Below, piece after piece: positions 1,568 through 35,903 of a DNA stretch of 64,000 nt. The translations under genes and the position numbers were made by a program. This stretch comes from Promethearchaeota archaeon (lineage in GTDB: Archaea; Asgardarchaeota; Lokiarchaeia; Sigyniarchaeales; SOKP01). Location: assembly GCA_019057865.1 (NCBI GenBank), contig JAHLWP010000022.1:1-64000 (forward strand), given 5' to 3'. The notes under the pieces are model-generated. The model was not told the origin of the DNA, searched no databases, and saw only the letters and a program-made list of their open reading frames with translations. Every line of letters begins with the position of its first letter. Position 1 is the first letter of the stretch.

Positions 1568-1719
1568 TCGTAAAACGGTTATCAAATTTAATATGAATGC
1601 AAGTGCTCTTTCCTAACCATTAAAATCAATTTTCATGATTTGAATTTCAATATTCTCAACTAAATTTATATTAATATACTTAAAAAGAGTATAAGGAGTA
1701 TGAGTTCGTAAAATAACCG
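1568..1719 (+). repeat. Paired-site element, copy A (TCGTAAAA-CGGTTA ... TCGTAAAA-TAACCG)
   Basis: Sites at 1568-1581 and 1706-1719; the interior aligns by eye with 34762-34914. Confidence 0.85.
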
Positions 1720-1871
1720 AATATTAAGATCTCAGAATAACGTTAAGAACGAGAGTTAAGGACTTAAACATGTGAATATTGTATTAGTCCTGAAATCTTT
1801 GTAATTGGTGGTATAAATGTGAAAGATTTATAAATTCATAAAACTAGATTAAGATATGGAGGGTATAGTAA

Positions 1872-2786
1872 ATGGTTAGAATTCAATTAGATGGAAAAGA
1901 AATCAAGGAAATGGAAATTTTTGAGAGAAATTTGCATGCAATTGTAGAAAATAATTCAGAATTGCTATTAAACTGTTATCTGATAAAATCAAAGTATAGT
2001 TTTAAGGGGCGCTATGATAAGAAAGGGGGAGAATTAGACTCACTCATGATCGATAAAGAAACTCTTCGCCCTGTTATTGTTAAATATAAAATGGGTAAGT
2101 TAGAACGAAATCAATCCGCTATCAATCAAATTGTTTATTATTATGAGTGGATAAATGATCATAAATCTAAAGTAAACGATTTAATATTAGAGGAGATTAA
2201 ACAAAAAAAATTAAAATTTGAAGTTGTAAGTGAAGATGAAGATATATTTAGTATCAATTGGAATGAGGGCATACGATGCATAATAATCGCTAAAGAATTT
2301 AGTGATTGGGATAAAGTTCTACTAGAATATCTTAGTTTCTCTATCGAATTATATACTTATCGCTATTTTGAAGATAAGACATTCGATTTAAACCTTGCTA
2401 GAGATTTACAAGATAGTATAAAACACGAAAAAAGAGTAAAACAAGATGACCCTAAAAAAAAGAAAGAATACAAAAATAATGAAAAACTTGTTGAGGAATT
2501 ATATAATAGATCTAAGTTTCAAGCAGTAAAAGAGTTTATTGATAAATGGAAAGGTAGTTTTGAATTAAGAGGTACCCTTTATTATCTGGCTTTCAAAGAT
2601 CGTTCCGAAAATAACACAATATTAAGGTTATATATTAGAAAGACTATGAAGCTAAAGATCACTTTGATTCCAATTCTTTCATTAGAAGAATTAAAAAAAA
2701 GATTCCAAAATTTAAACATCAGAGAAGATCCTTATGCGCATGACTTGCCTATAACAATCACAGAATTAACTTCTAAATTGGATTGA
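1872..2786 (+). CDS. NucS-like PD-(D/E)XK protein, possibly inactive
   Basis: ERNLHAIVENN...GELDSLMID...PVIVKYK...AINQIVYYYEW matches the NucS-like family; the usual ExK reads KYK. Confidence 0.65.
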   Translation: MVRIQLDGKEIKEMEIFERNLHAIVENNSELLLNCYLIKSKYSFKGRYDKKGGELDSLMIDKETLRPVIVKYKMGKLERNQSAINQIVYYYEWINDHKSKVNDLILEEIKQKKLKFEVVSEDEDIFSINWNEGIRCIIIAKEFSDWDKVLLEYLSFSIELYTYRYFEDKTFDLNLARDLQDSIKHEKRVKQDDPKKKKEYKNNEKLVEELYNRSKFQAVKEFIDKWKGSFELRGTLYYLAFKDRSENNTILRLYIRKTMKLKITLIPILSLEELKKRFQNLNIREDPYAHDLPITITELTSKLD

Positions 2787-2907
2787 ACAAATCAATAAAC
2801 GAGATCATTAAAGAAATATCCTCCAGATTACTCTTACATTATAATTATAGAATTCTCTTGATTTGGTATAGAAAAATTTCAAAATTTTATTGATTTCAAA
2901 GAATTAG

Positions 2908-4386
2908 TTATATCTCCAGTATTCCATCCCATGCTGCTCGCTCTTTGTCGAATAATGCATTAGCAATTTTAAATTCTTTTCCAAATAAAAGCGTAGCTCT
3001 GCTTTTCTTATCATATGCGGGCCAATGTGGAATCCCATCATGATTCGGATTACCACTATGAGCAAATGAAAGCCAAGCGTCCATCATATTTTCACATAAA
3101 TTACCTGTATTGGTTGCATTGCCCACCAAAGCTTTCATTCCAGGTTCTTCAAGAGTATTAAATATAAATGGAAGTTCAAGAGCATGGCAAGCACCAAGAT
3201 TTCCCTTATATACAGAAGTTTCCCATGTAAATAAGTAATTATATGTATTTGGCTGATATTTGGACTGTGTTTCAAGTATTTGTAGTGTTGCCACTCGGAA
3301 CATAAGATCAGTAACAATAGAATCCAATAATTCTTTTGGTTCATTTGAAAAGATTCCTGCTCGTGCTTCTATATAAGTATCAATAATATTTCGAGCTTTC
3401 TCAGAATTTATTCCCATCGTACCTAAATAAAACATTATAGCTTTTTCATCCTTAATTTTGCGTATAGCGGGATCCAATGAAGTAAACAGTTTGGCTTCAT
3501 GTAGGTTAGTTCCCATCATTAAATCAATATTTTTACATTTACCCTCCTTGAATACGGTTAAAGGATGTACTGGGAATGTTTCACTATAGATTAAAGGTCT
3601 AAAGGCTAGCGCTTCTCTTTCAGTGATTTTATTTTGAGCTTTTATAATCTCTTTAGGGGCTACTTTACGTAATGCATTAATATCTCTATATTTAATCCCT
3701 AAAATACGCATCAATTCTCTTGTAGGTTTTTTTGTCACTTTGGGATCGATGGTAGGCATACTTTGTGCTATAATTCGACGAAAGAGACCATTAGCTGCGG
3801 GCATCGCTGTTAGAGTAATAACAGAATAAGCACCTGCGGATTCTCCAAAAATCGTAATATTATCCGGATCACCCCCAAATTTAGCAATATTATCATGGAC
3901 CCATTTTAATGCTAAAATCTGATCTAGTTGTCCTACATTTGCAGTTATACCGGGAATGAAAAGGTATCCAAAAGCACCCAATCGATAATTTATCGTTACT
4001 ATGACAACATCACCACTTTCAGCTAAGTTGGAACCATCATAGGTAGGAGCTCTACTTCCACCAAAAATGAAAGCCCCGCCATGTATCCAAAACATTACTG
4101 ACCTTTTCTTATTATCAATAGCAGGAGTCCAAATATTAAGTGTTAAACAATCTTCACTTTCAGGTTGAAGTTTTCCGATTATTTCTTCCAGCGCTGTATA
4201 TCCTTGAAATGCACAAGGTCCAAATTCTATAGCTTCTAACACACCGTTCCAATGCTTTTTAGCTTGTGGAGGACTAAATCGTAAATCACCAATAGGAGGC
4301 TCTGCATAAGGAATTCCTTTAAAAATTTGCATATTATTTTCAGTATAACCTTTTATTTTTCCACAATTTACTTCTACAATTGTCAT
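2908..4386 (-). CDS. Type B carboxylesterase (para-nitrobenzyl esterase-like)
   Basis: FKGIPYAEPP, SEDCLTLNIW, WIHGGAF, FGESAG nucleophile elbow, GACHALEL. Confidence 0.95.
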   Translation of the reverse strand: MTIVEVNCGKIKGYTENNMQIFKGIPYAEPPIGDLRFSPPQAKKHWNGVLEAIEFGPCAFQGYTALEEIIGKLQPESEDCLTLNIWTPAIDNKKRSVMFWIHGGAFIFGGSRAPTYDGSNLAESGDVVIVTINYRLGAFGYLFIPGITANVGQLDQILALKWVHDNIAKFGGDPDNITIFGESAGAYSVITLTAMPAANGLFRRIIAQSMPTIDPKVTKKPTRELMRILGIKYRDINALRKVAPKEIIKAQNKITEREALAFRPLIYSETFPVHPLTVFKEGKCKNIDLMMGTNLHEAKLFTSLDPAIRKIKDEKAIMFYLGTMGINSEKARNIIDTYIEARAGIFSNEPKELLDSIVTDLMFRVATLQILETQSKYQPNTYNYLFTWETSVYKGNLGACHALELPFIFNTLEEPGMKALVGNATNTGNLCENMMDAWLSFAHSGNPNHDGIPHWPAYDKKSRATLLFGKEFKIANALFDKERAAWDGILEI

Positions 4387-4600
4387 AATTAGATATAAAA
4401 TAGTAATGAATATAAAAAATATGTTGAATCGAGAATAAATAAAATAATACTTCTATATATTCTATTCGTTTAGAGATAATAAAATTGAAAGTGATCTCAT
4501 ACTTATTCCTTTGATTCAAACAATTCAAAAATTTATTATATTTCAATCATTTGCTTGTATTATAACCATCTGAAAAATTATTTGCTAAATTTTAGAGATA

Positions 4601-34700: not shown

Positions 34701-34761
34701 AAAAATTCAAGATAATTTATATTTAAAAAACAGGGTTTTTTCTTATCTTCTAATATTAATA

Positions 34762-34914
34762 TCGTGAAACGGTTATCGAATTTAAATTTAATATTAATAT
34801 ATTATTCTAACTATAAAAATCAAATTTTATTAATTCGGATTGCCAAATTTACAATCAAATTTTAGTTGGTTCATCTAATAAGAGTATTAAGTATATGAAA
34901 TCGTGAAATAACCG
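34762..34914 (+). repeat. Paired-site element, copy C (TCGTGAAA-CGGTTA ... TCGTGAAA-TAACCG)
   Basis: Sites at 34762-34775 and 34901-34914; interior homologous to copy A. Confidence 0.88.
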
Positions 34915-34970
34915 AAGTATCAAATTTTATAATTTTAATTGATACTCTAAGATTTCTATTATTTATTTAA

Positions 34971-35819
34971 TTATTCCAATACTTTATCTTCTTTTAATTT
35001 GGATTCGATCTCAGTAATTTTTCCTAAAATTTCTTTTTTCTTTGGGAACTCCAAGATTAGTAGGGAGTAATTTATCATAAGAATTATTTTAGATATCACC
35101 GGTTCAAACAATTCTAAATCAGGGTATTCTTTTATATATCTTATTTTTAGATTCGTATAATAGAGAGGAAAAGTTTGTAGGATTATGGAAATATACATAA
35201 AAAAGTTTGATAGAGTAAGATTAACTACAAAAAAAGGATCTTTCATAAAATCGAAAATGAGATTAAATGAAAAACCTATAAGGAAAGCAATGAATCCGAA
35301 TTTATTTAGATAATCCCCATATGATTTGAATATTGAACAATAATATTGAACTTTATCCTGTATAGTACTACACTTTACTCTATAATTCATGAATTCTTTT
35401 TCACCAATTTTTTCTTTTAGAATGTTATTATTTAGTATTAAGATTAATTGAGTTTGGAAATTGAATAACTTTTTTCTCTTTTTTCTGTAATAGGATATGG
35501 AGTAATGAAATTTCTTGAAACAAATTCTATCTACTAAATAAAAAAGAATGAGAGCAATAGTAAAGATAATAGAACTAATTAAAGAATACGGTTCCTCAAC
35601 AAAAGCAGCAAACATTAAAGTGATTAATATGATAGGAAACAATATTAATTTATAGATTACATATCTTGAATATTGTTCAGTGCGCTTTAAACTTAAAAAG
35701 ATATTTAAGTACATTTGATTATAGTCAAGTAATTGATTATAGGCATTAAAAAAAATAATAAAGTAGGAATTTAATTTCTCTTTTGATATCAAATTTTTTG
35801 GTTCTGTATTATTTATCAT
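34971..35819 (-). CDS. Membrane protein with two pairs of TM helices
   Basis: Two hydrophobic hairpins; bracketed by sites at 34901 and 35882. Confidence 0.65.
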   Translation of the reverse strand: MINNTEPKNLISKEKLNSYFIIFFNAYNQLLDYNQMYLNIFLSLKRTEQYSRYVIYKLILFPIILITLMFAAFVEEPYSLISSIIFTIALILFYLVDRICFKKFHYSISYYRKKRKKLFNFQTQLILILNNNILKEKIGEKEFMNYRVKCSTIQDKVQYYCSIFKSYGDYLNKFGFIAFLIGFSFNLIFDFMKDPFFVVNLTLSNFFMYISIILQTFPLYYTNLKIRYIKEYPDLELFEPVISKIILMINYSLLILEFPKKKEILGKITEIESKLKEDKVLE

Positions 35820-35881
35820 TAATTATATTTGATTTTTGAACTTTTTAAGGTTTCTTTTAGTTTAGAAAACTAAACGTTTCT

Positions 35882-35903
35882 TCGTGAAACGGTTATTTCA
35901 CGA
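35882..35903. other. Complete palindromic site TCGTGAAA-CGGTTA-TTTCACGA (candidate tyrosine-recombinase crossover site)
   Basis: Perfect 8-bp inverted arms around an asymmetric 6-bp core; both halves recur elsewhere in the window. Confidence 0.65.

Follow-up and report, generated by a model that had tools for sequence, protein, structure and literature searches.

Tyrosine recombinases act at core sites in which two inverted arms surround an asymmetric crossover region of 6-8 bp, the arms of dif, lox and FRT being 11-13 bp long. Integrase-less elements such as CTX, TLC and the gonococcal island exploit the Xer recombinases and form tandem arrays at the palindromic host dif with one functional site at the edge; they use the unique chromosomal dif at the terminus. 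The present analysis concerns a row of short sites of comparable layout, which separates accessory genes in a 64,000-nucleotide stretch of an Asgard archaeon (Promethearchaeota archaeon; GTDB lineage Archaea, Asgardarchaeota, Lokiarchaeia, Sigyniarchaeales, SOKP01; GenBank assembly GCA_019057865.1, contig JAHLWP010000022.1, positions 1 to 64,000 of the forward strand; the whole stretch is hereafter referred to as the window). Gene cassettes without an integrase of their own probably accumulate at a palindromic attachment site in this row.

The window belongs to contig C42 (66.7 kb) of the source genome, G000 (4.26 Mb, 87 contigs, 29% G+C); other G numbers denote the genomes of relatives and L numbers extracted loci. 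The A half-site, TCGTGAAACGGTTA, is defined here as the arm TCGTGAAA followed by the core CGGTTA, and the B half-site, TCGTGAAATAACCG, as the same arm followed by the inverted core TAACCG. The complete site carries in addition the inverted arm TTTCACGA. Half-sites were counted at a threshold of at most one mismatch.

The pdif modules of Acinetobacter plasmids are moved by XerC/XerD, and their sites keep two 11-bp arms, one on the XerC side and one on the XerD side (PMC6449649, PMC13141974). The locus described here resembles them in its accessory modules without a recombinase, presumably served in trans, in its short sites with a 6-bp spacer, in the alternation of core orientation between neighbouring sites and in the occurrence of modules in different contexts. 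It differs from them in arms that are identical and 8 bp long, in the retention of one arm at most junctions, in a constant arm orientation, in the convergence on one complete site and in its host, an Asgard archaeon. The archaeal dif of T. kodakarensis (TTTTGATATAA-TGTACC-TTATATGACAA; PMC11840125) is different in sequence, and a chromosomal dif is single, whereas about ten palindromes per genome are present here, with 8-bp arms unlike GATATAA/TTATATC. The Xer-exploiting elements mentioned above are likewise set apart by this family of about ten sites with varied spacers, the CGGTTA member of which lies in different contexts in different species.

Integrons, in which IntI recombines attI with attC (10.1101/2022.02.06.479319), share with the locus a single entry site, a growing, co-oriented row of promoter-poor cassettes and a cargo rich in defence and toxin-antitoxin-like genes; unlike them, the locus has neither folded attC sites nor a detected IntI, its growth is possible on both sides and its genes lie on both strands. 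The sfx sites of shufflons, which are acted upon by Rci, are asymmetric (PMC11852207), and the present sites resemble them in having one conserved arm plus core and in being numerous within one region; shufflons invert short segments within one gene and have rci adjacent, whereas here the modules are whole genes or operons, no dedicated recombinase gene lies nearby and arm orientation is uniform. Classical integration into palindromic targets, for example tRNA anticodon stem-loops (PMC8371274), has a counterpart in hybrid attL/attR sites on contigs C79 and C27 of G000, with a crossover in a short stretch of identity, but the target there is a free-standing 22-bp palindrome and not the tRNA gene itself. 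Aloposons and Atabeyarchaeia elements were also considered and set aside, their features being unrelated. No description of these sites or their motif was found in the relevant literature searched, and the locus looks like an undescribed archaeal gene-collecting platform comparable to integrons or dif modules.

Site anatomy, polarity and module boundaries

The region from 1 to 36 kb of the window holds accessory and defence-type genes and is followed by a BREX-like (bacteriophage exclusion) block. A first-pass annotation of the window had listed seven copies of the motif, all intergenic and on the plus strand, with none beyond 35.9 kb, only the last one complete, and one gene in each interval between 31.9 and 35.9 kb. 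An open reading frame (ORF) map and a motif scan bore out each of these points. Five copies of the A motif (1568, 8438, 15391, 34762 and 35882) match with at most one mismatch, all on the plus strand, against 0.19 expected, and none of 100 shuffled sequences reached five; the copies at 31929 (TCATGAAAGGTTA) and 34072 (TCGTGAAAGGTTA) have lost the C of the core and are two of only five genome-wide matches to this shorter form. Past 35903, only chance-level similarity to the motif was seen in the window. On sequence comparison the 31929 site is a decayed true copy, because homologous elements of about 400 nt in many relatives, G001, G002 and G010 among them, open with the canonical A motif. The complete site at 35882-35903 has an 8+6+8 arrangement with perfect arms and an asymmetric core, so that the tyrosine-recombinase type of layout proposed for it in the first-pass annotation is retained.

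Each of the last three intervals contains a single gene, namely the 504-amino-acid (aa) ORF (31929-34072), AbiV (34072-34762) and a 282-aa ORF on the minus strand (34762-35882). Stop codons may lie very close to a site (4 nt from the 1568 site; 15 nt from the 35882 site for the minus-strand gene 35918-36172). Sites and genes are oriented independently of each other, and the window contains all four combinations. In the whole of G000 the A motif occurs only eight times (five copies in the window, two on C34 and one on C5) and is therefore local and not scattered. Of the cores that adjoin the arm in G000, only CGGTTA/TAACCG is enriched, with 15 copies as against 7 for the next core.

A sites were found in 17 of the 24 other genus genomes searched, with clusters well above the control pattern in some of them only. 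Co-oriented arrays of A and B sites, with one to a few genes between sites, are present in G001, G002, G005, G012, G018, G044, G048, G053 and G069, and contig C34 of G000 itself bears a second island, in which nine half-sites, all on the minus strand, are spread over about 53 kb (13.2-66.1 kb) among large multi-gene systems. The full CGGTTA palindrome is present on five contigs (the window, G018:C57, G069:C4, G044:C41 and G002:C28). On these, the half-sites to its left are on the plus strand in 19 of 19 cases and those to its right on the minus strand in 25 of 25. The array of G069, for instance, has plus half-sites at 20.9-30.7 kb, the full site at 32.64 kb and minus half-sites at 36.3-67.3 kb. 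On contigs without a full site the orientation of half-sites is uniform, and the sole apparent exceptions to the polarity are two-mismatch matches within coding sequence.

The first-pass annotation had asked whether synteny breaks at the core, and similarity between species does start and stop at the sites. A module with a 339-aa gene (ORF339) is about 97% identical between G001 and G012; this similarity opens with the first base of the B site, spans the gene and closes where the A site ends, both outer sides being unrelated. Two 152-nt units of the window, a and f, match G012 only from the first base of A to the end of B (unit a, 96% identity to G012:C69 2942-3101; unit f, 97% identity to G012:C69 1968-2120), the flanks being unrelated; the two lie 1 kb apart with other neighbours in G012:C69 and 33 kb apart in the window. 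The module at 1705-2792 is 85% identical to a part of G069:C4, the similarity starting at the B site (window position 1705) and stopping at window position 2792; a different gene adjoins the module in G069, and the PDC-S18 gene of G069 has two B sites as its boundaries. The family of about 500 aa to which the 504-aa ORF belongs was found in three places with three different neighbourhoods (window 32468-33982; C34:24725-26437; L046 8825-10354 of G069), each time as a single-gene module between A/B sites, and putative NurA-HerA genes also lie between sites in different neighbourhoods. These comparisons support the view that the sites behave as module boundaries. The 504-aa family had no match in Pfam, NCBIfam or PADLOC. 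It was considered as a recurrent enzyme of the arrays and rejected, having only three homologues; no protein family recurring in the arrays was found.

A and B half-sites are frequently paired in a unit of fixed length. B sites lie 138-139 nt downstream of A at 1706, 34901 and, in decayed form, 8577; on C34 they follow the two A copies at 136 and 139 nt. Among the loci examined, the spacing is 136-139 nt in 22 units. The ends of a unit, TCGTGAAACGGTTA... and ...TCGTGAAATAACCG, amount to an 8-nt direct repeat with a 6-nt inverted core, and the unit interiors group into subfamilies. The site matrices were built from 128 A and B sites of relatives, whose consensus core is CGGTTA or its complement. 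At 1568/1706 the two arms of a unit vary together, a pattern that was not general in other genomes. The unit was also considered as a structured RNA or DNA and rejected for want of a fold signal, its folding being no better than that of shuffled sequences (z = -1.0 and -0.1 for single-stranded DNA; z about 0 for 16 units with RNA parameters).

The features of the array are listed in Table 1. The non-coding element of 31929-32330 recurs as the conserved leader in two parts, 15391-15606 and 20150-20440, which are split by a 4.6-kb insert of three genes. The cargo is typical of cassette arrays, with PDC-S18, AbiV, NurA-HerA (NurA putative), PD-(D/E)XK proteins and NYN nucleases. Besides PDC-S18 and AbiV, the genes in the 1-36 kb region encode a PD-(D/E)XK protein, a PDDEXK_4 nuclease, a carboxylesterase, DsbA, a flavodoxin, an AAA ATPase, radical-SAM enzymes next to a NYN RNase, and a HerA-like ATPase with a putative NurA, the last name being a label only, with no family match. 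A faint Cas4-like stretch was noticed in the 304-aa PDC-S18 ORF. No tRNA or tmRNA genes and no Rfam families were detected in the window.

Table 1. Sites, cassette genes and related features of the array (window coordinates, unless a contig of G000 is named)
Feature	Position	Strand	Remarks
A half-site, arm variant TCGTAAAA + CGGTTA	1568..1581	+	opens 152-nt unit a (1568-1719)
B half-site TCGTAAAA-TAACCG	1706..1719	+	138 nt after A; bounds the 1872-2786 module on the left
Cassette gene, 304 aa, candidate defence protein PDC-S18	1872..2786	+	PADLOC, E 1.8e-30
A half-site, arm TTGTGAAA	8438..8451	+	similarity to G014:C205 stops at 8465
Decayed B partner ATGTGAAATAACTA	8577..8590	+	139 nt after A; four mismatches, weak alone
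Perfect A half-site	15391..15404	+	followed by first part (to ~15606) of conserved non-coding leader
Distal part of leader begun at 15391	20150..20440	+	aligns to 32070-32340
Decayed A half-site TCATGAAA-GGTTA with uninterrupted ~400-nt leader	31929..32330	+	one base lost
Cassette gene, 504 aa	32468..33982	+	no known family
Possible decayed A half-site TCGTGAAA-GGTTA	34072..34084	+	homologue not found; least certain copy
Cassette gene, AbiV-type HEPN	34140..34700	+	PF18728, E 9e-16
152-nt unit f	34762..34914	+	perfect A (34762-34775) and perfect B (34901-34914)
Cassette gene beside the full site, 282 aa	34971..35819	-	no known family
Complete palindrome TCGTGAAA-CGGTTA-TTTCACGA	35882..35903		array convergence point; only full site in the window
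Other palindromes of G000	C14:29807, C18:81089, C19:530, C23:182972, C37:18329, C41:172901, C51:3593, C54:74780, C60:25245, C75:44091, C87:45404		

Repeats and contig ends near the sites were also noted. In many relatives (for example G002:C28, G005:C132, G004:C24 and G012:C69), contig ends often lie no more than a few hundred bases from an A or B site, and the same holds for C85 of G000; this fits the breaking of metagenome assemblies by repeats or alternative junctions. Positions 1-162 of the window are repeated at 93-94% identity at C36:18969, at C1:36426 and in two relatives, and this repeat is probably the cause of the assembly break. C34 carries on its minus strand, at 13179, 22507 and 52837, a repeated non-coding element about 355 nt long and 98% identical, with shorter copies at C34:63796 and C56:13214; it opens at a B site, closes in a G-rich motif (ttttttaggagggggc..cacgggggag) and is without an ORF.

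A sister palindrome as attachment site

The complete site belongs to a class of palindromes, TCGTGAAA-N6-TTTCACGA, one member of which has been a target of integration at the tRNA/Nep1 locus, about 50 nt downstream of the tRNA gene and next to Nep1. In G000 the site at C79:40574 reads TCGTGAAA-CAATGG-TTTCATAC and is followed by a ribbon-helix-helix (RHH)-like gene and a 306-aa tyrosine integrase at the contig end, and the site at C27:20295 reads GTATGAAA-CAATGG-TTTCACGA, the DNA to its right being 93-96% identical to the DNA directly adjoining the locus in G056, G012 and G055. In G056, which represents the empty site, an intact palindrome stands between identical flanks (ttttaatattt / atattatattt), its spacer being turned the other way. 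Because of this intact palindrome between the same flanks, the C79 and C27 sites are read as an attL/attR pair, with the common core CAATGG. The site of the element would be GTATGAAA-CAATGG-TTTCATAC, with a crossover within TGAAA-CAATGG-TTTCA. The inserted DNA (C79:40574-42308 and C27:1-20316; about 22 kb if C79 joins C27 directly) contains two integrase-like genes, the RHH-like gene, a DNA methylase and mostly unknown genes. Since hybrid junctions are present on two contigs and an empty site in G056, the CAATGG palindrome is concluded, on sequence evidence, to have been used as an attachment site, and the palindrome class to serve in this organism as an attachment site for tyrosine-recombinase-mediated integration.

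Twelve copies of the palindrome are present in G000, spacers of lengths other than 6 giving 0-3, a strong preference that also agrees with a recombinase-type layout. All 54 genus genomes contain 3-11 copies each, as against 0-1 for a control pattern, and the class was found in 59 of 61 family genomes, its occurrence in the order being patchy. In G000 each of the 12 palindromes closely follows the 3' end of a gene, at 11-163 nt from the stop codon, and divergent gaps contain none; the neighbours are ordinary genes, such as those of Ras-like GTPases, FlpD, GH3 and a tRNA. The arms are conserved, and the spacers are G+C-rich and locus-specific, being often conserved between species but able to drift.

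A spacer may also be flipped in place. At the tRNA/Nep1 locus, the spacer is GGATGG in most species (L105, L107, L111, L114 and L121) and CCATCC between the same flanks in G009 (L117; G009:C119), and L101 of G056 differs in the same way from the C79/C27 sites of G000 (CAATGG/CCATTG), with arms and flanks unchanged. At the palindrome between two Ras-like GTPase genes (C54:74780 in G000), the spacers GCTGAG, GTTTAG and GGACAG were observed in different species. A 1.35-kb insert with a 410-aa ORF lies directly after this palindrome in L082 (G055:C217), and an 11-kb insert is present there in L081 (G012:C89), of whose site only the left arm and core remain. The locus was considered as a clean pair of filled and empty sites and rejected, the insert junctions in G055 and G012 not being clean.

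A proposed mechanism and its rivals

We consider it probable that gene cassettes lacking an integrase accumulate at the complete CGGTTA site, and that the motif copies are the junction sites of an array which arose by conservative site-specific recombination. The attachment site would be the complete site, with its 8-bp arm, asymmetric 6-bp core and inverted arm, and incoming circular modules would carry a one-armed site, with arm and core in either orientation, often having both core orientations 136-139 nt apart in a 152-nt unit. Crossover in the core would insert the module, leave a half-site on its far side and regenerate the complete site, and insertion in the mirror sense would fill the opposite side; repeated insertions would therefore produce a row of half-sites, on either side, pointing to the complete site. 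Later deletions and inversions between sites could reshuffle the modules with the polarity preserved. Both core orientations could come to lie on both sides if the core of the complete site flips in place, or if inversions relocate the complete site, and a unit with both orientations could enter in either core state. The modules would have to be served in trans, by a host XerA-like enzyme or by the integrases of visiting elements. A fuller version of this proposal envisages about ten 22-bp landing pads per genome with one XerA-like recombinase, the CGGTTA pad growing arrays on both sides into defence islands while pad spacers flip in place over time and the 152-nt unit allows a cassette to enter in either state of the pad, as a self-contained system distinct from integrons and dif modules; in this complete form we hold it to be speculative and rather doubtful. 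Nested (Russian-doll) insertion of two-armed elements is unsupported, because the left and right half-sites are without common outer arms; there are no matching arms across the full site, with at least five mismatches in 12.

Besides a XerA-like gene (C87 47983-48906), G000 has four matches to the integrase family, of which one is broken and another falls short of the Pfam cut-off. Searches of this genome for Y1 transposases, TnpB and serine recombinases found none, nor was any serine recombinase found in five array-rich genomes. In G002 (100% complete) and G053 (99% complete), both array-rich, the XerA-like gene is the only tyrosine recombinase gene detected, and for this reason its product is the obvious candidate enzyme. 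The arm is unlike known archaeal dif, and no convincing match to the canonical archaeal dif pattern was obtained. A palindrome 170 nt upstream of the xerA operon was rejected as a dif-like XerA site, as in most genomes it stays with a 174-aa gene elsewhere. The integrase family of C79 was likewise rejected as the array enzyme, since only 10 of 54 genomes have it and none of these is array-rich; homologues in other genomes do not lie beside arm motifs.

Several observations weigh against the proposed mechanism. No recombinase gene was found in or beside any array, and the 8-bp arms are shorter than those of dif, lox and FRT. The half-sites keep a single arm and, because the opposite arm (for example TCGAATTT or CAGAACTA) is unlike TTTCACGA, binding of two recombinase monomers is not evident there. 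A and B cores are both present on each side of full sites, so that a simple model works only if the full site can flip its core, a change seen at two other loci and not at the CGGTTA full site. The fixed A-to-B spacing is left unaccounted for by the model. An attL/attR pair with an empty site was obtained for the CAATGG sister palindrome; for the CGGTTA sites, similarity breakpoints alone were seen. Finally, conservation of the palindromes behind housekeeping genes throughout the family implies for this class a host role that may be unrelated to recombination. The undescribed cassette platform put forward in the first-pass annotation is supported in part. The site anatomy, the breaks of similarity at the sites, the polarity towards the full site and the use of a sister palindrome for attachment have been demonstrated, whereas exchange at the CGGTTA sites, entry through the full site, the direction in which the array grows and XerA as the enzyme are inferred.

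The conservation of the palindromes in the genus and the family, their position behind stop codons and never in divergent gaps, their ordinary neighbours and their conserved arms beside drifting spacers would all suit an arm that is the binding site of a host protein (a roadblock, terminator, insulator or chromosome organiser), the island copies being half-strength versions with a core shared by common descent and the modules being swapped by homologous or illegitimate recombination. We regard this as unlikely, since such a protein would not predict one exact 6-bp core in half-sites of many species when each housekeeping palindrome has its own, nor a polarity flip exactly at the full site and breaks of similarity at the sites, and the integration in G000 is an instance of the palindrome class in recombination use. 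An operator function, in which the sites lie 5-6 nt upstream of TATA-like boxes and bind a regulator of island genes or small RNAs, appears very improbable: TTTAAAT-like boxes do follow many A/B sites and a winged helix-turn-helix gene (DUF2250, a weak Pfam match) adjoins the full site, but such strings are common in DNA of 28% G+C, the sites at 8438 and 34762 face the 3' end of a convergent gene and others have no same-strand gene downstream, and neither an Rfam family nor a fold signal points to a transcript. A transcription-factor site scattered genome-wide at a fixed distance from start codons, which the first-pass annotation had named as the alternative, is also at odds with the eight copies on three contigs, and the operator reading fails on this count.

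Two further explanations are centred on the 152-nt unit. It could be a non-autonomous element resembling a miniature inverted-repeat transposable element (MITE), inserted between the genes of a variable island, with single sites as its decayed copies; the units are discrete (150-153 nt) with sharp ends, group into subfamilies whose interiors are conserved and, amid unrelated flanks, show 96-97% identity from one species to another. The terminal inverted repeats and flanking target-site duplications that mark MITEs and other non-autonomous transposons are, however, absent, copies are few, 18 of 54 genomes having 1-5 each, lone A or B sites are many at module ends, and transposition does not predict convergence on a full site. 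With Y1 transposase, TnpB and serine recombinases not found in G000, this origin is judged distinctly unlikely, and an IS200/IS605 or REP/RAYT origin was rejected on the absence of the first two. Alternatively, the array could be an ordinary integron cassette cluster without an integrase (cluster of attC sites lacking integron-integrase, CALIN), a kind of cluster reported to be enriched in Asgard genomes (10.1101/2022.02.06.479319), in which the units, lying between cassettes and having the short terminal complementarity CGGTTA/TAACCG, would be attC sites. This is the reading to which we give the least credence: single-strand folding of the units is no better than that of shuffled sequences, the RYYYAAC/GTTRRRY boxes are absent from the unit alignment, both strands carry cassette genes, lone half-sites are frequent, and the tyrosine recombinases score as XerA-like or phage-integrase-like, the IntI-specific domain not having been searched for.

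Significance for Asgard genomes

The acquisition and reshuffling of accessory genes in Asgard archaea are poorly known, the literature searched being concerned with viruses, tRNA-integrating elements and bacterial-type integron clusters. If the cassette-array mechanism is true, a short, simple site with a variable spacer is a possible orthogonal recombination tool, and the sites would provide a handle on the boundaries of islands in fragmented metagenome assemblies. For the organisms themselves, it would mean a native Asgard cassette platform, with a site grammar of its own, that builds defence islands.

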